35,580 nt of DNA from a virus. Positions 853 through 35,580 of this stretch are shown here, piece after piece. The notes below the pieces were generated by a model. The model worked only from the letters and a program-made list of their open reading frames with translations. It searched no databases and was not told the DNA's origin. The stretch's first letter is position 1, and every line of letters begins with the position of its first letter. The DNA lies in UHGV virus genome UHGV-2170436; one strand, given 5' to 3'. A program made the position numbers and the translations under genes.

Positions 853-978
853 ATGAAACAATTTCATGATGGCATTTCATCTAAGACATTCAAGAAAGAA
901 TATAGCGGCTTGTGTATTGACTGGATGGATTTGATTGGCGCGGTTGTGTTTGGTCTGATTATTAGTATTAACTTTTAA
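853..978 (+). CDS. small membrane peptide candidate (41 aa, C-terminal hydrophobic helix)
   Basis: ATG at 853 preceded by GGGGTGAG Shine-Dalgarno-like sequence; MKQFHDGISSKTFKKEYSGLCIDWMDLIGAVVFGLIISINF; below ORF-track length cutoff. Confidence 0.3.
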   Translation: MKQFHDGISSKTFKKEYSGLCIDWMDLIGAVVFGLIISINF

Positions 979-1023
979 CGATATAAATATATCGTAATTC
1001 AAACAACAAGAGGAAGTTCTACT

Positions 1024-1437
1024 ATGAAAAAGATTATCGCTGGTGTTGTTCTTGCTCTGGGTTTGGTTGGTGCTGCGAATGCTAATACCTATTATGTGTG
1101 TAATTCCTACTTCGAACATAAAGGAGATGATACACAATATCTTCGTGATGGCGACCGTTATTATCATGCGCCGTCTGGCAAATACCGTGGTTTTATCGGT
1201 GTAAAGGTTCGAGTGAATGATGATAATAGTCAATTTGCTTTCAACGATCCGGTATTTGATAAAACAATCAAAAGCCCAAAACTGAAAGAAGATAAGAACG
1301 AGAAAGAAGAATATTATGGTTCCGAAGATGGTAAATCCTACATCAAATATCTGCATTCTGTAGATGGCGCGCCTATATTTGATGTTAAAAAAGGTGATAC
1401 GTCTTATTCCCTGATTAGCTGCCGTGAAATTCTTTAA
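1024..1437 (+). CDS. secreted protein of unknown function (Sec signal peptide)
   Basis: N-terminus MKKIIAGVVLALGLVGAANA is a typical signal peptide with A-x-A cleavage motif; RBS agaggaag upstream. Confidence 0.6.
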   Translation: MKKIIAGVVLALGLVGAANANTYYVCNSYFEHKGDDTQYLRDGDRYYHAPSGKYRGFIGVKVRVNDDNSQFAFNDPVFDKTIKSPKLKEDKNEKEEYYGSEDGKSYIKYLHSVDGAPIFDVKKGDTSYSLISCREIL

Positions 1438-1451
1438 TCTTTAATCACCTA

Positions 1452-1487
1452 GCCCCTATCGTTATAATACGCGGTAGGGGCGTTTTT
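1452..1487 (+). terminator. Rho-independent terminator candidate
   Basis: Stem gcccct/aggggc with 18-nt loop followed by gtttttgttt, directly after the 1024..1437 gene. Confidence 0.5.
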
Positions 1488-1500
1488 GTTTGGAAATGGT

Positions 1501-3180
1501 ATGAAAACTAAACTGTATTCGTATATTCGCTTCTCGTCTATGCGTCAGAATGATGGTTCGAGTTATGAACGACAAATCAGGATGGCTAGAGAGATTGCGG
1601 TAAAGTATGACCTTGAACTGGTAAATGATTATCAGGATCTGGGTGTATCTGCGTTTAAGGGTGCTAACTCCAAAACAGGGGCGCTATCTCGTTTCCTTGA
1701 TGCAATAGGTAGATCCGTTCCTGTTGGTAGCTGGCTATTCATCGAAAACTTGGACCGTTTATCCCGTGCCGATATTGTCAGTGCGCAGGAGTTATTCCTT
1801 TCAATCATCCGTAGGGGGATAACCATTGTTACTGGCATGGATAACAAGATCTACTCGCTGGATACTGTTACCGCTAACCCGATGGACCTGATGTTCTCCA
1901 TCCTTTTATTCATCCGTGGTAATGAGGAAAGCCAGACTAAGCGCAATCGTACTAACTCAAGCGCACTGATTAAGATTAAAGCTCATCAAGAAAATCCACA
2001 AAATCCGGCTGTTGCAATCGAGGAAATTGGAAAGAATATGTGGTGGACTGATACCACATCTGGTTATGTGCTTCCTCATCCGGTCTTCTTCCCTATTGTT
2101 CAGGAAGTTGTGGAATTACGCAGGAATGGACGGTCAACCGCCGAGATACTGGATCACCTTAACGCGACATACACACCACCACCAGCCGCAAGTCACAAGA
2201 GGCATTCAAACTGGTCACGGGCAATGATTGAAAGGTTGTTCCATACCCGCGCTTTGATTGGTATCAAGGAAATCTCTGTAGATGGCGTTAAGTATGAGTT
2301 AAAGGATTATTATCCTCGTGTGCTAGATGACGCTGAGTTTTATCACCTTAAGAAAAGCATTGGTGTTAGAGCATGTAACTTTGGAGACAAAGAAGAAGTT
2401 AAACCTATTCCCTTGCTTAGTGGTGTTGGTCTATTGAAATGTGAACATTGCGGTTCCGCTATGGTTAAGGTGAAAGGAACAAACAGACGGCCTAACCAAT
2501 ATCGTTATTCATGCGATGCAATGCGCTCTAGTCGTATTGAATGTGTGCATACAAACTGGAGTTTTCGCGGCGACCAATTAGAGAAAGCTGTATTGCAATT
2601 GCTGGCTGATAAAATCTGGATTGCTGAAGATAAGGCTAATCCGGTTCCGGCTTTGAAAGTACAGATTGATGAAATATCACGCAAGATTGATAACCTGATT
2701 ACCCTTTCTGCTATGACAGGAGCAACGAAGGAGCTAGCCGATCAGATTACTACCCTCAATAGCGAGCGTGAAACACTCTACAATCAAATTAAGATGGCAG
2801 AAGAGGAAATGTATTCTGTTGACTCTCAAGGCTGGGAGAAGCTCGCAGAATTTGATTTAGAAGATGTTTACAACGAGGATCGCATTAAGGTCCGGTTTAA
2901 GATTAAGCAAGCTCTAAAACGGATCGGGTGTAGCAGGATTGACAAGTACAAAAACTTGTTTGTACTGGAATACATCGATGGCAAGACCCAGAGAGTTGTA
3001 ATAGAAAATTCAAGAGGACCGAGGAAAGGCCGGATCTTCGTTGATTTGAAGACTATCAATGATAGGCAGATTCTGGAGAGTAACGGGCTTGTTCTGCATC
3101 CATGTTTAGACATGCTGACAGATAAGAACTGGAAACCAGAAGAAGAAATACCAGGTCCATTACAAGAATTTGGAATTTAA
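1501..3180 (+). CDS. large serine recombinase (putative integrase)
   Basis: N-terminal resolvase catalytic motifs (YIRFSSMRQ with nucleophile Ser; ENLDRLSR), central recombinase domain, Cys-rich zinc ribbon (CEHCGS...YSCDAMRSSRIECVH) and coiled coil. ORF track starts at 1486; Met at 1501 gives the canonical MK..Y.R.S N-terminus. Confidence 0.9.
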   Translation: MKTKLYSYIRFSSMRQNDGSSYERQIRMAREIAVKYDLELVNDYQDLGVSAFKGANSKTGALSRFLDAIGRSVPVGSWLFIENLDRLSRADIVSAQELFLSIIRRGITIVTGMDNKIYSLDTVTANPMDLMFSILLFIRGNEESQTKRNRTNSSALIKIKAHQENPQNPAVAIEEIGKNMWWTDTTSGYVLPHPVFFPIVQEVVELRRNGRSTAEILDHLNATYTPPPAASHKRHSNWSRAMIERLFHTRALIGIKEISVDGVKYELKDYYPRVLDDAEFYHLKKSIGVRACNFGDKEEVKPIPLLSGVGLLKCEHCGSAMVKVKGTNRRPNQYRYSCDAMRSSRIECVHTNWSFRGDQLEKAVLQLLADKIWIAEDKANPVPALKVQIDEISRKIDNLITLSAMTGATKELADQITTLNSERETLYNQIKMAEEEMYSVDSQGWEKLAEFDLEDVYNEDRIKVRFKIKQALKRIGCSRIDKYKNLFVLEYIDGKTQRVVIENSRGPRKGRIFVDLKTINDRQILESNGLVLHPCLDMLTDKNWKPEEEIPGPLQEFGI

Positions 3181-3184
3181 GCTA

Positions 3185-3442
3185 ATGAAGATGATTAAGA
3201 TTTTAGGTTTGATTTTATCTATGAATTCTTGCCTGGCATTGGCAACCGTAGACCAAGAAATGCGTAGACCGCTAACCTATAGAGAAGATGCTTTCATTGA
3301 TGGAGCACATAAGACATTGAAATTGCTATGTCAAAAGACCACCAGTAATTACGGTGAATACAGAAAATGTTATGAGGAATCACTAGACATTTATTCTGAT
3401 GAGGTGAGAAAGATTTTCATAGAACAAGAAAATAAATCATAG
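3185..3442 (+). CDS. small secreted or lipoprotein-like protein
   Basis: MKMIKILGLILSMNSCLALA... hydrophobic signal with Cys; ORF track start at 3170 is a TTG inside the recombinase 3' end, first ATG is at 3185. Confidence 0.4.
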   Translation: MKMIKILGLILSMNSCLALATVDQEMRRPLTYREDAFIDGAHKTLKLLCQKTTSNYGEYRKCYEESLDIYSDEVRKIFIEQENKS

Positions 3443-25216: not shown

Positions 25217-27121
25217 TTAGAACGATGTTACCCAGCTACGGCCTCTATTTGGGCGTCTGGCGATGTTTTGACGTTGTGGTCGTGTGATTGGCTTAGTTTC
25301 TTCGATTTGCTCGTCAGATTGCGTTTCAGGAGCTTTTACGGGTTCTTCTGGTTCACGGTTCAAACTATCTTTGATGGCTTCGAGTTTTTCCCATGACATT
25401 TTATTGAGTACATGGCGAGAAGCAGCATAGGAATAAGCCAGGCAGTCGAGAGCCTCGTTTCGTTGCTGACCAACTTTTACCCAACGTGTGGTATTACCCT
25501 GCCGTTTCAACTGTTCAGAAAGCAATTGCTCGCAATAGTCATCAGGAACGTCACCAATCTGGAAGACAGTATGAGGATCGCCATCTCTCAAGTTCCGGTT
25601 AATCATTTCACGGATCATCGTCTTAAGGTTGTTTACGCCCAGAATTTTGAGAGTAAAACCGCCCGTTCTTGTGTCCTTAGCCGGAAGGATTGGAGCATCA
25701 GCATTACTTGCGCCTTTAATGGCGCATAGGTTTTGCCACCTAGTGCAAAAACGGTAGATCACGTTTGTAGCTCGTCCGTTCGATGAGTCCACGAAAGCAG
25801 ATAGCATCGGGATTCGTTCACCGGATCGGGTATAGAATTTCGCTTTCAGGAAGTTATAAAGCTGGTCATATGCTGGTGATTCGTGGCGTTCGCAGTTCAC
25901 ATCATAGAATGATCGGTGATCAACTACGCATATCCCCTTACGAGAGATACCCAGCAAGGTAGATTCCAGACGGTCTTTTTGCTGGTCAACTCCACCTACC
26001 AGAGCCAGTACATCATCAGGAATATTGTCTAGGCTAATATCAGTTTTCAGCGTTTCCAGTTCGTCGGCTGTGCGATCTTCGTTAAGATCATCGAAGGTTT
26101 CACCGAGGACTGTATTGTAGAACGTTGCTAGTGACATATTCGCGTAGCTATCAGCAAAGTCCACCACACACGCACGGATAGAACTAAACGGAGACATAAG
26201 GCGGTTAGCATGAAAACCGATTACTTCCGCATTTGGTTCTGTAGCAATCCATTCACCTTGAGCAACAGCACGTAGGCGATCCCCTTCTGTCCAATCAGTT
26301 TCACATGACGGGCAACGATAAACGGCAGTATCTGGATTCGGCAGTGATTTACAGTTAATCGTATGCCAATCAAAGAAAACTCTACTCCATTCCATTACGT
26401 GCTTGTGTCCGCAATGCTGGCAAACGACATGATATTTTCTCTTATCCGAGAGTTCCCATTGTTGGTTAATCGCCCCATCACGAGCGGTTGGAGTGGAAGC
26501 AATTACGATCCTTGCATCTTCCCCGAAAGTGGTTGCGCGTTGTTCCGCTAGCTGGATCGGGTTCCCTTCGTCTGACTCATCAGCCGCATCAACTTCATCA
26601 AGAATAATCAAAGGGAGTGTTTTACCGCGAAGATGTGACGGACTATTCAACGACATGAAATACATAAACGATCCGTTACGAAGCTGAATAATCGATGAGT
26701 TGTTAACGGCATTGCGATCTGATTTGTCGGTGATCATCGCCTTTAATTCTGGTGTTGCCTCTAATACTGGCTTCACCTTACCAGCGATCCAGCTATTCAA
26801 CTCGCGGACATTCGATTGCAACACCCCGATATTAGTAGGGTTACTCGCGATCCGATGGAAGATAATTCCGTTAAGAATCATGGTCTTACCCAACTGTGCC
26901 GAACATTTAAACACAATTTTTCTACGGTCTTCGGTGATCGCGTCCATCATTCCACGTTGGAAGGGATGCAATTTAATTAGCGATCCGGCTTTAACACCAT
27001 CGGTCGCAACTACATTAGCCTCTACCCATTCGCTAGGTTTCATGGTTTTAGGTGGACGAATTGCAGCAGAGATATTTTTGAGAATCTTTTTTAATTTTGC
27101 CTTATTAGAAATCAGTTTCAT
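25217..27121 (-). CDS. terminase large subunit (lambda gpA-like)
   Basis: Walker A CSAQLGKT, Walker B LPLIILDEVD, Cys-rich nuclease region; GAGGGT RBS before ATG at 27121. Confidence 0.85.
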   Translation of the reverse strand: MKLISNKAKLKKILKNISAAIRPPKTMKPSEWVEANVVATDGVKAGSLIKLHPFQRGMMDAITEDRRKIVFKCSAQLGKTMILNGIIFHRIASNPTNIGVLQSNVRELNSWIAGKVKPVLEATPELKAMITDKSDRNAVNNSSIIQLRNGSFMYFMSLNSPSHLRGKTLPLIILDEVDAADESDEGNPIQLAEQRATTFGEDARIVIASTPTARDGAINQQWELSDKRKYHVVCQHCGHKHVMEWSRVFFDWHTINCKSLPNPDTAVYRCPSCETDWTEGDRLRAVAQGEWIATEPNAEVIGFHANRLMSPFSSIRACVVDFADSYANMSLATFYNTVLGETFDDLNEDRTADELETLKTDISLDNIPDDVLALVGGVDQQKDRLESTLLGISRKGICVVDHRSFYDVNCERHESPAYDQLYNFLKAKFYTRSGERIPMLSAFVDSSNGRATNVIYRFCTRWQNLCAIKGASNADAPILPAKDTRTGGFTLKILGVNNLKTMIREMINRNLRDGDPHTVFQIGDVPDDYCEQLLSEQLKRQGNTTRWVKVGQQRNEALDCLAYSYAASRHVLNKMSWEKLEAIKDSLNREPEEPVKAPETQSDEQIEETKPITRPQRQNIARRPNRGRSWVTSF

Positions 27122-27207
27122 GTAATTACCCTCATTACGAAATATGAAGGTATTTATTAAATTGTTGATATTTTGATAAATACGGTATTAAGATTTAAGG
27201 AGGGTGT

Positions 27208-27801
27208 ATGCTAATTAATCAGCAAGAAAGAGATGAATTAGCCTTGTCTTGTACCGATCATGAATATCGTTTGCCAGTAAAACATAAGCACTTAAAGACC
27301 GATTACACTACATCCGGTTTTAGTCGCGAAGAAGCGAAAGAGATTTTAATCGAGTTGTATCGCGATCATGGGTATACCGATATTCACAACTTCTTTAAGA
27401 AGCATAGAACATCACATACAGAGTTTCGGAGAGTCCGAGATTGGTTTGATTTTGATATCAAGCGTTATTATCGCATTGATGACGGTCCTATCTATCGGTT
27501 GCAGTGGAAGTCGATCCGAGAAGTGTTGAAACAGAAGAGATTGAATCACGCTATTACACGCTATCGTAACGAGGCTTTCAAGAAAGGCTATGGTGATACA
27601 AGGGAACTATTCGTTGAACTCGCTAACGTGAAGTACAGCCACTATTACAACGATCCTAAATCCTTCTTTGAAGTGCTTCGCAAGGTTGATATAAGTCGGG
27701 GTACATACTATTCACGGTTGAAGAAGTACGGGATTAAGGCAGAGTTCTTTATGTCGGTTGACGATGGAGAACTTTTTCCGATAAAATGTAAGTCACTCTA
27801 A
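27208..27801 (+). CDS. DNA-binding protein with duplicated resolvase-type HTH-like modules
   Basis: Two internal segments ending in a recognition-helix-like motif (ISRGTYYSRLKKYGIK), paralogous to 27834..28067 and 31103..31285; AAGGAGGG RBS. Confidence 0.45.
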   Translation: MLINQQERDELALSCTDHEYRLPVKHKHLKTDYTTSGFSREEAKEILIELYRDHGYTDIHNFFKKHRTSHTEFRRVRDWFDFDIKRYYRIDDGPIYRLQWKSIREVLKQKRLNHAITRYRNEAFKKGYGDTRELFVELANVKYSHYYNDPKSFFEVLRKVDISRGTYYSRLKKYGIKAEFFMSVDDGELFPIKCKSL

Positions 27802-27833
27802 ATAAAAGTGAACATTCACTTTAATTTGGAGAA

Positions 27834-28067
27834 ATGACTATGACTACTAAAGCTACTCGCGGTCGTCCTGCCCGTTTTAACGCTGAACAAATGGCTGATA
27901 TTGCCTACGCTTATTATACAGCGGATCGTGGTAAGGAAGCGAAAGAACAGATTCTTAGTGAACATGGGATTTCAATTGCCCAATTCTATAAGAATATGAA
28001 GAAGTTAGACATTAAATTCTATGTTCAGATCGGTGATGGTCAGATCGTAGAAGCAACAGGTTTTTGA
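27834..28067 (+). CDS. small HTH DNA-binding protein (excisionase/RDF or regulator candidate)
   Basis: TRGRPARF...GISIAQFYKNMKKLDIK resembles resolvase-type HTH; 77 aa. Confidence 0.45.
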   Translation: MTMTTKATRGRPARFNAEQMADIAYAYYTADRGKEAKEQILSEHGISIAQFYKNMKKLDIKFYVQIGDGQIVEATGF

Positions 28068-28082
28068 GTTTTGATTCTCTTT

Positions 28083-28106
28083 GCCACTCTTCGGAGTGGC
28101 TTTTTT
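28083..28106 (+). terminator. Rho-independent terminator
   Basis: gccactc-ttcg-gagtggc followed by tttttt. Confidence 0.7.
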
Positions 28107-28215
28107 GTATCTATAGGGTTGTCCAAAACGCCATCGGCGAGTTGGTGGAAGATGGCGCGAAAAGTCGCGTGATGTAGGTATGAAAAAGCCCCGCACGAGG
28201 CGAGGCTAAAAATTA

Positions 28216-29031: not shown

Positions 29032-29122
29032 AGTAAAAATTCCCCTTAAACGGTTTAGTGATTTGGTCCTCCTAGTTCCGGCAGCATCACCGGAACAATT
29101 TTATTTATAAGAAGTTTTTATC

Positions 29123-29860: not shown

Positions 29861-30060
29861 AGTGGAAATTCTCTAAAAGAAAGTGAATCAATCTAATATT
29901 ATTTATAAAGAGAAAATTCTTGTTATTATGAAAGGTGATTGTATTCAGTCGGGCAAAGCCCTCCTTCATAGATTTTGAATAAATCATCATCAAAACGAAG
30001 AAGTATCTTTAGAATATAAGAATCTTTCTTTTGGAGAAATAATAATCAGGAAGCAATTTG

Positions 30061-30089
30061 GCAACCGAAGGTTGCAATCCCGAAGGGAT
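30061..30089 (+). repeat. Two adjacent GAA-triloop hairpins
   Basis: gcaacc-gaa-ggttgc (30061-30075) and atccc-gaa-gggat (30077-30089). Confidence 0.4.
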
Positions 30090-30436
30090 AACCAATACCT
30101 TTCTAGAAAGTGATTGTTACTCACTTCGTTCGTTTACTAGAATCAGTTAGTAACTAGTATTAAATCCCTTTCTGAGAAAATCCTTTCAAAAGCGAGTGAA
30201 CGCCGTAGGTGTGAACGTGAGCGAAGCGAACTATCCAATCCCTTTCGAATCCTGCTTGCAGGTCTTAGAAGGTGTTGATGGGCGCTTCGCGCACGGCTAC
30301 GCCGTATTCTTTTTGCGAGATCTTTCTTGAACGTAGTGAGAGAAAACGAGCAAAAAGGAGAACGTTAGTTCGAATTTTATATTCTATGGTCTGTGTGGTG
30401 AAATGTCTTTCAAGATCATACACTTATGAGATTGAA

Positions 30437-30534
30437 GTGTAGGGTTAGTGTAGGTGTGTAGGTGTTATAGTGTAGGTTTACTGGCTAGTGTAGTGTAGGC
30501 CAATCCCTTTAAAGCGTAGGTTTGTAGTGTAGGT
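30437..30534 (+). repeat. Iteron-like direct repeat array (GTGTAGG core, at least 6 exact copies plus variants)
   Basis: GTGTAGG at 30437, 30448, 30456, 30470, 30493, 30527; variants at 30488 and 30514; four copies of the 10-mer TAGTGTAGGT spaced about 22-34 bp apart. Confidence 0.7.
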
Positions 30535-30730: not shown

Positions 30731-30759
30731 TTGACAACTGTCAAGGATTATTTTATACT
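30731..30759 (+). promoter_or_regulatory. Near-consensus sigma70 promoter (TTGACA - 17 bp - TATACT) with operator-like palindrome
   Basis: TTGACA 30731-30736, 17-nt spacer, TATACT 30754-30759; -35 is part of the near-palindrome TTGACAACTGTCAA. Confidence 0.65.
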
Positions 30760-31102
30760 TTTTCTCGTTGGTAGGGGTTGAAATTTTCGAAACAATCCAC
30801 ATATTGATGATACGCAAGATTTTTTCGTGTATAAATACATGCATGAAAATGATTGTTCACTTCTGAAAATCCCCTGATTCACTGTTAATTCATACAGCAC
30901 TGGCTAAACATACAGTGCTTATTCGATTGAATAATGTACGAATTGATTAATTATTAATCTTCTCTTTAGCAATTCGTGCTCCCACTGATCGGATATACAG
31001 TGGTTTTACAGGGTTTTTCGAAAAACATTTTATAAATAGAATTGTTCAGAGCGAAAAGCTCTTTTTTAAGAAATCATTATTCCAGATTTAGGAGGATATA
31101 AG

Positions 31103-31285
31103 ATGGCACGACCTGTTAAGTTCACTCGTGAAATCGTTTTAGAAATGGCAAAGCGTTATTTTGAACTGACACCTGATGTAGTGATGGGTGAATGGTTTAA
31201 AGGTGAAGGTATTGATCAATCAACCTTCCACAAACTCTTAAAGAAGTATGACATTAAAGTAAAGATTACCGCCGAGGTCTGGTAA
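31103..31285 (+). CDS. small HTH DNA-binding protein (paralog of 27834..28067)
   Basis: MARPVKFTREIV...GIDQSTFHKLLKKYDIK; GGAGG RBS. Confidence 0.5.
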   Translation: MARPVKFTREIVLEMAKRYFELTPDVVMGEWFKGEGIDQSTFHKLLKKYDIKVKITAEVW

Positions 31286-31328
31286 TAACCTTTCACTGAG
31301 AATTATATGATGGCTTTAAAAATAAAAA

Positions 31329-31357
31329 AGCCTCCCTGTTGGCGCAAGGAGGCTTTT
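31329..31357 (+). terminator. Rho-independent terminator
   Basis: agcctcc-N12-ggaggct followed by tttt. Confidence 0.65.
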
Positions 31358-31401
31358 GATATGAACAATTAAACTAACACAGAGCATTCAGGAGTATTTA
31401 T

Positions 31402-32397
31402 ATGAAAAATTCTAAGCGCATTACCTTCAACATGTTTATTAAATCCAACGGCAAACTGAACATCACTGTCATGGAAGGTAAAGCAAGCAAACAAGACAAA
31501 TCCTTTGAAGTAGTATCAGGTAAGACTCTGACCGAAATGCGTCAAAATGCTGGCATCAAAGACGGTGCTGAATGGCAGATCACCAACCGTTTCGACAAAC
31601 GTCACGTTAAACCTACACTGGTAGAAGGTGAATCCGTTTATTGCTTCGCTCGTGCTGTTAAAGCTGATGAAACTTACTATCTGGCTGTTGTTAAAACGGC
31701 TTCCGGCTTCCGTGCTGTAATGCATCACAAGAGCAAACGTAACGAATACGGCGTAGAGACCCAGGAAGTCGCAAAACGCTTCCGTACTGTTGCTACCGAA
31801 TCCACTGTAAAGGATGTTTCTGGTACTGTTAACACCGCTAAAGGCGGTTCCTTCTACAACCACGCATTACAGGTTACTTCCTCCTTCTTCTGCAAAAAAG
31901 AAGCACAGAAAGAAGTTTCTCCGGTAGTAGTTGAAGAAGTTAAAGAAGAAGTTGCAGTGGTTGAATATTCCGAAGTTGAAGCACTGAAAGCACGCATCGC
32001 TGAACTGGAAGCTGAAAACGCATCTCTGAAAGCTGAACTGGCAGCACAGGAAACCACTTTCGAAGTAGCAGCGGTTGAAGTTGAAGCAGTTGAAGAAAAA
32101 TCCATTGATGAAGAACTGGAAGAACTCCTTAACTATCGCTGGGGTGTTGTTGCAGAAGTAGAACAAGAAGTTGCTCCGGTAGTTGTTCCGGTTGAAGTTG
32201 AAGAAGAATCCGCACCTGTTACTAACTTTGAATCCCTGCGCAATAACTTTATGGCTAAATTCAAAACCACTTGGGAAGATACCGAAGAAGAACAAGAAGA
32301 GATTGAAGTAAACGAAGACGAGATCCGCGAAGCACAGATGGCACTGCATGACGCTATCTACGACACCAACTACAGCGCCTACGCATACGCAGCTTAA
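31402..32397 (+). CDS. hypothetical early protein with acidic, Val/Glu-rich coiled-coil C-terminal half
   Basis: AGGAG RBS; 331 aa; no motif recognised. Confidence 0.45.
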   Translation: MKNSKRITFNMFIKSNGKLNITVMEGKASKQDKSFEVVSGKTLTEMRQNAGIKDGAEWQITNRFDKRHVKPTLVEGESVYCFARAVKADETYYLAVVKTASGFRAVMHHKSKRNEYGVETQEVAKRFRTVATESTVKDVSGTVNTAKGGSFYNHALQVTSSFFCKKEAQKEVSPVVVEEVKEEVAVVEYSEVEALKARIAELEAENASLKAELAAQETTFEVAAVEVEAVEEKSIDEELEELLNYRWGVVAEVEQEVAPVVVPVEVEEESAPVTNFESLRNNFMAKFKTTWEDTEEEQEEIEVNEDEIREAQMALHDAIYDTNYSAYAYAA

Positions 32398-33350: not shown

Positions 33351-33905
33351 TTAAGACACATCAAATTCATCGTCTTCTTCTGGTTCTTGTTCCGGTTCAT
33401 CCATTAATGGTAATTCTTCTTCCTCGTCTTCTCCCAAATCAGCATTTTCGAACAAGTCCCCTACTTCATTTAAACGACGCTCGATGATCTCCCTTAGCTT
33501 ATTCTTCAATGTTTTCTGGTCATTGGCAGATTCGAGAATTTCTAGGGCATCGATCGTACAAATCTGCAAAATAGTCTGTTTCACTTTCCCGCAGTATTCC
33601 GCTAGTTCCTGTTCTACATAACCGACAGGAATCAGGAGATTCATTTTTTCCTGGTTCTCTCGTTCGGCTGCATCTGCCAAAGCACGTTCACGGCGTAATT
33701 TCTCTACATCGATTTGTTCTTTGATAGAAGTTTGTTTAAGCGGGTTGATAATATTTTTCAAGACCCATTCTGTTCCTTCTTTGGCTGGCACGCGGCGGGT
33801 ATTGGTGTTAAATGGCAATCCCCTTTCTATCCATCGCTTAGCGCCACCATTCAATGAATAGCCGTATAAACGGGAAATTTCTGTAAGGGTTAATTCTTCT
33901 TTCAT
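33351..33905 (-). CDS. terminase small subunit (lambda Nu1-like)
   Basis: N-terminal winged-HTH LTLTEISRLYGYSLNGGAKRWIERGLPF and following EKLRRERALADAAE parallel Nu1 (KKQLADIFGASIRTIQNWQEQGMPV; EKLRREVEELRQASE) as I recall it; acidic C-terminus. Confidence 0.55.
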   Translation of the reverse strand: MKEELTLTEISRLYGYSLNGGAKRWIERGLPFNTNTRRVPAKEGTEWVLKNIINPLKQTSIKEQIDVEKLRRERALADAAERENQEKMNLLIPVGYVEQELAEYCGKVKQTILQICTIDALEILESANDQKTLKNKLREIIERRLNEVGDLFENADLGEDEEEELPLMDEPEQEPEEDDEFDVS

Positions 33906-35058: not shown

Positions 35059-35256
35059 TAGAGGCGACATAATACAATCAGAGATAGTTAAACGCCCGAA
35101 TATTACTAGTTAGTTCCTAAGTTCATTTCTTATGGTGTTAATTGCGACTCAGTTGCTATAGAATTCTTCTAATTCATTGATTCTATAGCCCTGTCCTTGT
35201 GATGGGGCTTTTTATTGCAAAATTTTTAGTTATTTTGGGTTGACTACATTCGGGTT

Positions 35257-35559
35257 GCCAATTCGCCTGGCTAACTCTTGCTGAGTGATTTCTGACTGTA
35301 AAAAAGCATTTAACAGCAATACCTTAGAGGCGACGCTCAAAGGTACTTCAATAAAGTGATCATGACTATTTAATGGCGAAGGTAACGGGATAAGCTCGTT
35401 ATCTTCAAAATAAAAATCAAATGCGGTCAGTAAAGCATCTTTTGCCGCTTCCATCGCTTCAGCGACAGTTTCGCCCTGCGTCAACGCTTCAGGGATATCC
35501 ACAAAAGAAACCATATAACCGCCTTCCGGCGCGGGTGTAAGAGTGACGGGATAACGCAT
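35257..35559 (-). pseudogene. hicB: hicB antitoxin gene, 3'-truncated (HTH domain lost)
   Basis: MRYPVTLTPAPEGGYMVSFVDIPEALTQGETVAEAMEAAKDAL fits the HicB N-terminal signature; the HTH begins at ...ITQQELARRIG and is replaced by NPNVVNPK-stop encoded by AT-rich DNA. Confidence 0.65.
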
Positions 35560-35580
35560 AATTTCGACTGTCTCTCGCAT

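Follow-up and report, generated by a model that had tools for sequence, protein, structure and literature searches.

A paralogous family of small helix-turn-helix proteins, candidate transcription regulators in the control region of an Escherichia coli prophage

Three small genes of an Escherichia coli prophage, ORF197, ORF77, and ORF60, encode a paralogous family built from four homologous helix-turn-helix (HTH)-type modules. We read the family as phage DNA-binding transcription regulators of the prophage control region, a role deduced from HTH class and gene anatomy to which we assign a probability of roughly 0.55. Three other leads—a directionality factor suggested by adjacency to the recombinase, an iteron binder, and a small terminase—are removed by the analyses below, which also indicate that the iteron partners are ORF331-like proteins. 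If the proteins are regulators, they offer a handle on a prophage type that lacks recognizable control genes and is present in 58 of 5426 complete E. coli genomes (~1%).

The window, by which we mean the whole 35,580-nt stretch of DNA analyzed here, is an E. coli prophage; strain HCP5S3_I4 carries a 95% identical copy, inserted within the antitoxin gene hicB. The same insertion site is seen in the window, with a truncated hicB beside an intact hicA toxin gene (35230–35580, minus strand). Tail, head, portal, and TerL genes occupy ~23 kb of the minus strand, and the single non-structural region, at 27.1–33.9 kb, holds all three genes of the family (Table 1). Profile searches of the window recognized no other repressor or Cro-like gene. 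Gene order is fixed across 33 IMG/VR prophages of this type: TerL (−) is followed by ORF197 and ORF77 (+), then by Rha-like, ORF51, and ORF155 genes (−), a 1.2–1.4-kb non-coding region, ORF60 (+), a gene of ~310–330 residues, often ORF80, and a 184-residue gene (−). Synteny around ORF60 is kept in 29 loci.

Within this fixed order the genes are mosaic. TerL exists as 97%, 58%, and 55% alleles (loci L006–L038), and among the related prophages ORF77 alleles stand at ~100%, 70%, and 58% and ORF60 alleles span 54–100%. The mosaicism spares ORF197 and the 86 bp between it and TerL, both of which are conserved. The first ~70 nt of TerL are conserved as well, while the rest of the gene is allelic (window 25217–27207; same loci); together with the conserved intergenic region and ORF197, this places a recombination breakpoint inside the terminase 5′ end. 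The genes terS (33351–33905, minus strand) and TerL lie 6.2 kb apart with the whole regulatory region between them, a split layout conserved in the 33 E. coli prophages and in Edwardsiella. At the other end of the window, a 90-aa ORF (3170–3442, plus strand) has an 11-nt overlap with the end of the integrase gene and looks secreted or membrane-bound; it has no family match. A 159-aa ORF at 877–1356 (minus strand) has a low-complexity hydrophobic translation and is probably spurious, and the ORF overlapping it at 1024–1437 (plus strand) opens with a signal-peptide-like MKKIIAGVVLALGLVGAANA.

Table 1. Coordinates of the family, its modules, and associated features in the window
Feature	Position	Strand	Basis and remarks
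Large serine recombinase	1486..3180		Domains Resolvase, Recombinase, Zn_ribbon_recom
TerL, lambda gpA-type large terminase	25217..27121	−	Profile matches
Sigma-70-like promoter (candidate), TTGATA-18-TAAGAT	27165..27194	+	Consensus scan, 9/12 positions
ORF197	27208..27801	+	ORF; basic, pI 9.4; two HTH-type modules
ORF197 N module	27295..27513	+	~Residues 30–102; profile domain limits, hhalign, AF2
ORF197 C module	27574..27795	+	~Residues 123–196; carries YSRLKKYGIK; hhalign, AF2
RNA hairpin (predicted)	27791..27839	+	Pairs last codons/stop of ORF197 with GGAG of ORF77
ORF77	27834..28067	+	ORF, AF2, family alignment, hhalign; GRP arm
Intrinsic terminator (predicted), closes ORF197–ORF77 unit	28083..28108	+	Terminator scan
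ORF60	31103..31285	+	ORF, family alignment, hhalign; single module without DG hairpin
Hairpin with T-runs on both sides	31326..31357		Terminator scan; directly after ORF60

A preliminary description of this DNA had proposed a paralogous family of three genes and four modules, and both the ORFs and their homology are borne out. BLASTP aligned ORF77 with ORF60 (33% over 52 aa, E = 3e-6), the C-terminal half of ORF197 with ORF60 (E = 1e-3), and its N-terminal half with ORF77 (E = 1e-3). By hhalign, the ORF77 family matched the ORF60 family (97% probability, E = 6.6e-11) and the ORF197 C module (residues 137–191, E = 4.6e-7), and the ORF60 family matched the ORF197 N module (residues 38–85, E = 2.9e-7). 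From these similarities, the three genes contain four homologous modules; a profile scan of all six frames of the window found no fifth.

The shared terminal motif on which the family had been proposed, (F/Y)xx(L/M)KK(Y/L)(D/G)IK, is literal in two modules (YSRLKKYGIK and YKNMKKLDIK) but not in the others: ORF60 starts it with H (HKLLKKYDIK, one substitution), and the N module of ORF197, the most divergent of the four, keeps only the remnant F..V..WF.FDIK. All three occurrences of its core, [LM]KK[YL][DG]IK, among the six reading frames of the window fall within ORF197, ORF77, or ORF60, and the core arose in 0/200 shuffled sequences. The module is also longer than first noticed. It begins (G)RPxxF(T/S)RE; the joint alignment of the four modules runs from F-(T/S)-R-E through G-I-(S/D)..T-(F/Y)...(L/M)-K-K-Y-.-I-K; and a β-hairpin around (D/G)G closes three of the four.

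All three ORFs behave as real genes, since substitutions among 33 related prophages fall mainly at the third codon position (65% in ORF197, 59% in ORF77, and 69% in ORF60); they are under purifying selection. Each has a good ribosome-binding site and encodes a basic protein (pI 9.0–9.4). Translation of ORF77 probably starts at its second ATG (27840; 75 aa), which lies 8 nt past GGAG and is also the start chosen by RefSeq.

AlphaFold2 (AF2) models place three helices in every modelled module. ORF77 (pLDDT 80) has helices at residues 17–29, 34–43, and 48–55, followed by β-hairpin strands at 62–66 and 70–74. ORF197 (pLDDT 72 overall, 80–92 inside the modules) has helices 40–54, 59–65, and 70–80 and strand 84–90 in its N module, and helices 132–145, 150–159, and 164–173 and strand 178–184 in its C module, with a disordered N terminus (residues 1–26) and linker (110–127). 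Conservation concentrates in two places. The third helix is invariant in the ORF77 and ORF60 families, and the arm that precedes the module is invariant in the first (G10, R11, P12) and nearly invariant in the second (R3-P4); both ORF197 modules lack it. An invariant GRP arm and helix 3, with the rest varying to 54–70% identity, fit a conserved target.

The preliminary description had likened the motif to the recognition helix of the resolvase/invertase HTH and named an HMM search against HTH_7 (PF02796) as the check. That search gave no match at E ≤ 1 for ORF197, ORF77, or ORF60. None of the three matched a model in Pfam, PHROGs, NCBIfam, or PADLOC; there was no direct match to HTH_23 (PF13384), no Resolvase catalytic domain in these stand-alone proteins of 60–197 residues, and no sequence relative among solved structures in the PDB sequences. 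The Edwardsiella orthologue of ORF77 came nearest, with sub-threshold matches to HTH_7 (14.9 bits, E = 0.031; gathering threshold 23.8 bits), HTH_23 (14.0 bits, E = 0.045; cut-off 24.6), and HTH_Tnp_1.

A profile of the four modules, searched against 1.84 billion representatives, reached only 32 proteins. Besides the family itself, these include a few proteins of 59–64 residues and multi-repeat proteins of 300–980 residues with 4–9 matched stretches each, arranged as tandem arrays of a ~50-residue unit; one, from a Clostridium MAG, is named “helix-turn-helix domain-containing protein.” Against Pfam, the repeat units give strong matches to HTH_23 (E as low as 1e-35), HTH_28, HTH_Tnp_1, and HTH_7; on HTH_23, P0080–P0089 range from 1e-26 to 1e-35, save P0081 at 9.2e-8. 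Because single repeats score only weakly against the module profile (5–25 bits each), we excised them, aligned them separately, and compared the resulting profile with those of the three families. It matched the ORF77 family at 95.7% probability (E = 1e-8), the ORF60 family at 97.2% (E = 2.9e-11), and the ORF197 family at 96.4% (E = 1.4e-9). A match of the repeats to PDB entry 8vd6 (“CAP repeat”) was set aside as uninformative, since that entry appears to stem from a protein-design paper and is probably a designed protein.

Since the module profile reaches repeats that match HTH_23, HTH_28, and HTH_7, the module belongs, on profile evidence, to the resolvase/transposase class as a divergent tri-helical HTH. 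The proposed resolvase likeness thus stands as to the kind and class of HTH—through the AF2 models, the repeat-profile matches, and the GRP arm—but not as a direct HTH_7 match. The family is a small, compact HTH variant that is absent from current profile libraries and taxonomically narrow. In a search of 5.8 billion sequences the families comprise 19, 39, and 19 clusters, the 39 being ORF197 homologues, and all members of the three families come from Enterobacterales. Relatives of these genes were absent from 50,697 deposited phage genomes (tblastn, GenBank phages), a search of one-genome-per-species contigs gave no match, no homologues were seen around TerL in phage DCP80, and a literature search returned nothing on the family.

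ORF197 and ORF77 appear to form a single transcription unit. The promoter-like sequence upstream of ORF197 lies within the 86-bp region divergent from TerL and is kept in 33/33 related loci, even with a different TerL allele; we infer that it acts as the ORF197–ORF77 promoter. The hairpin at the junction of the two genes (−19.7 kcal/mol, z = −5.5) is conserved in relatives, with one compensatory pair, and its pairing of the end of ORF197 with the Shine–Dalgarno sequence of ORF77 suggests that the two are probably translationally coupled. Transcription of ORF197 diverges from that of the TerL operon in the 33 E. coli loci and also in a rearranged Edwardsiella prophage.

ORF60 heads a rightward operon, with ORF331 (31402–32397) and ORF80 next, and no gene separates it from the region's strongest rightward promoter (TTGACA-17-TATACT, 30731–30759). 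Pairwise BLAST delimits a recombination block at 31055–31378 that contains ORF60 and the hairpin directly after it. Upstream, six exact GTGTAGG copies lie at 30437–30533, against two expected in the whole window. Across 29 loci the iterons are of type AGTGTAGG, TTCAGGGGCAAA, or ACGGGGAC, and the type follows the allele of the ORF331-like gene downstream of ORF60: ORF331 itself is present in 12/12 loci with AGTGTAGG iterons, and the remaining loci carry another N-terminal domain on the same scaffold of coiled coil and acidic tail. Over the 29 related prophages, co-variation of iteron type with the ORF331-like N-terminal domain is perfect. The alleles of ORF60, ORF77, and ORF197 vary independently of iteron type. 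Because the iterons co-vary with the ORF331-like gene and not with the HTH genes, they belong to the ORF331-like protein, which this pattern marks as the iteron partner, initiator-like or repressor-like; ORF197, ORF77, and ORF60 were rejected as iteron binders on the same ground.

No DNA words co-varying with ORF60 or ORF77 alleles were found outside the genes, only within or touching them, which agrees with their invariant recognition helices. Two further candidate sites were discarded: motif AAAGTGAA was not enriched, and ATCCCTT, although enriched across the non-coding region, is more consistent with a long-range RNA/DNA stem than with operators. The stretch 30040–30340 (plus strand), which is the conserved portion of the non-coding region, folds far better than shuffled sequence (−98 kcal/mol, z = −4.4), retains an inverted ATCCCTT pair in 28/29 loci, and includes a 48-bp imperfect palindrome (30081–30128); Rfam returned no family match in the window, this stretch included. 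Separately, a 27-nt element, AAAAACWTYTTATAAATARAATTGTTC, occurs in two copies (29093–29119, minus strand; 31021–31047, plus strand), 56–62 nt upstream of the Rha and ORF60 start codons, with a short hairpin after each; no such pair arises in shuffles, and it is conserved in some relatives only.

Relatives outside E. coli show the same genes in other arrangements. In an Edwardsiella tarda prophage, homologues of ORF197, ORF77, and ORF60 are consecutive on one strand, divergent from an operon with Rha and TerL, and the ORF197 and ORF77 homologues are not beside TerL. The ORF197 homologue there is split within its N module into ORFs of 121 and 117 aa (L005 7614–8354), which may be a frameshift or assembly error; the gene may be dispensable in this prophage. 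A 46% identical relative of ORF60 occurs in a T4-like metagenomic contig among gp2, gp5, gp6, and gp53 genes. Its cassette (L003 5170–6625), flanked by structural genes of T4 type, holds ~10 copies of AGCGATTAC, a consensus promoter, the ORF60-like gene, a gene for an ORF331-N-like protein (E = 6e-9), and one for an 80-aa coiled-coil protein, in the same order as the prophage cassette. Around P0101, a distant relative from a second T4-like contig, neither clear iterons nor an ORF331-like partner could be seen. The more unusual part of the system is its architecture, with the control region enclosed by terS and terL and an iteron cassette that also occurs in a T4-like phage.

Alternative functions were weighed against this evidence. 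The preliminary description had offered the proteins as directionality factors or regulators and had placed them next to the serine recombinase, which in fact lies 24 kb from ORF197. Regulators are the best reading of HTH class and anatomy; that one or more of the proteins is instead a recombination directionality factor, binding the serine integrase and switching it from integration to excision, is unlikely. The prophage has a large serine recombinase and no annotated directionality factor, the integrase type is present in every fetched relative whose integrase end was recovered, and some directionality factors of serine integrases, TP901-1 Orf7 and SPbeta SprB, are reportedly ~60 residues long. 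Yet integrases 99–100% identical to that of the window occur with ORF60 alleles of 54–100% and ORF77 alleles of 58–100%, and across 22 prophages the ORF60, ORF77, and ORF197 alleles show no positive co-variation with the integrase (Spearman rho −0.44, −0.13, and −0.08). The ORF60 relative in the T4-like contig also speaks against it, and, to our knowledge, the known factors of this kind work through protein contacts and need no HTH. The modules could also be protein-binding helical adaptors without DNA binding, acting as host-takeover, anti-defence, or anti-repressor partners. Weak fold-search scores, the lack of a direct HTH model match, and a very narrow, mosaic family, as is often seen with accessory phage genes, would suit such a role; profile-level homology to bona fide HTH_23-type repeats, the invariance of the GRP arm and third helix, the basic pI, and the absence of any PADLOC or anti-defence match leave it improbable to the same degree.

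Two further alternatives start from gene neighbourhood. ORF60, and perhaps the others, might be, rather than a transcription regulator, an accessory DNA-binding factor that assists the ORF331-like protein when it acts at the iterons to initiate replication or control copy number. ORF60 is invariably placed between the iteron-bearing non-coding region and the ORF331-like gene, which it directly precedes; the T4-like contig repeats the order of the whole cassette; and the Edwardsiella iterons are situated just before the ORF197 homologue. We nevertheless consider this unlikely: the iteron type tracks the ORF331-like allele and not those of the HTH genes, near-identical ORF60 proteins (97–100% to that of the window) are found with both AGTGTAGG and TTCAGGGGCAAA iterons, and the ORF60 recombination block starts just 48 bp upstream of its start codon. 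Packaging specificity, with ORF197 and ORF77 as small-terminase-like proteins that bind cos or pac, or as helpers, is the least probable reading. In E. coli both genes adjoin a gpA-type TerL gene that has no small terminase directly upstream, and an N-terminal HTH is common in small terminases. However, a Nu1-like small terminase is already encoded by terS: its product, ORF184, matches phrog_57 (“terminase small subunit”) over its full length (E = 4.3e-12) and shares 54% identity with a protein of Edwardsiella that matches Phage_Nu1. The adjacency to TerL is not kept in Edwardsiella, the AF2 model of ORF197 predicts no oligomerization or TerL-binding region, and no terminase model in Pfam or PHROGs matches. 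ORF197 and ORF77 were therefore rejected as the small terminase.

Under the regulator reading, the family would consist of lineage-specific paralogues that act as small, basic, sequence-specific DNA binders, each module consisting of a tri-helical HTH (HTH_23/HTH_7 class), in some cases preceded by a (G)RP arm and in most followed by a C-terminal β-hairpin. They would regulate the control region that the genes for the two terminase subunits enclose. ORF197 would serve as a bipartite reader with two HTHs and ORF77 as its single-HTH partner, both produced from one autonomous unit with its own promoter, coupling hairpin, and terminator. Because this unit is divergent from the late operon, it probably targets the 86-bp promoter region that the two share, or else conserved sites within the 1.2 kb of non-coding DNA. 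ORF60, as leader of the rightward, iteron-linked operon, would probably have a Cro-like or autoregulatory role there. DNA binding, targets, and regulatory role are in each case predicted from sequence and gene layout.

A more specific version can be put forward only tentatively, and we think it unlikely to hold as a whole: the family would supply the master regulators of a prophage type whose entire control region is flanked by the two terminase genes. ORF197 and ORF77 would form a lysogeny or late-gene switch at the divergent TerL promoter, and ORF60 would be a portable regulator in an iteron/initiator-like cassette common to temperate siphophages and T4-like lytic phages. If true, ORF60 would belong to a mobile, self-contained module of DNA-binding and replication type that crosses very different phages.

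Like the HTH of Hin and gamma-delta resolvase (HTH_7), the module has a (G)RP arm followed by a three-helix HTH of ~45 residues whose helix 3 starts G-I-S/D..T, and some proteins reached by the module profile score on HTH_7. Hin and resolvase DNA-binding domains carry a (G)RP arm comparable to that of ORF77 and ORF60. Unlike those proteins, the phage proteins stand alone, without a catalytic domain or a PF02796 match at E ≤ 1; three of the four modules add a C-terminal β-hairpin, and the ORF197 modules have no GRP arm. TP901-1 Orf7 and SPbeta SprB are similar in size, and the host prophage here likewise has a large serine integrase; the likeness is one of size and context only, and the setting differs, in that the family shows neither linkage to the integrase nor co-variation with it and has a relative in a T4-like phage. 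ORF60 resembles lambda Cro and P2 Cox in being a basic protein of 60 residues encoded first after an early-type promoter, an analogy of position only.

The closest sequence relationship is to HTH_23/HTH_28/HTH_Tnp_1 transposase domains and to the multi-HTH repeats. Repeats of the type SITKEQ..G.S..EI...LGIS..TYY.LLKKYGIKT have the whole module in common with the phage proteins, including the LKKYGIK tail. The multi-HTH proteins carry 4–9 tandem repeats in 300–980 residues, whereas the phage proteins are built of one or two modules, with longer loops between helices and the hairpin. The two-HTH layout of ORF197 is, in turn, comparable to the bipartite paired-type domains of the Tc3 and Sleeping Beauty transposases and of the CENP-B N terminus.
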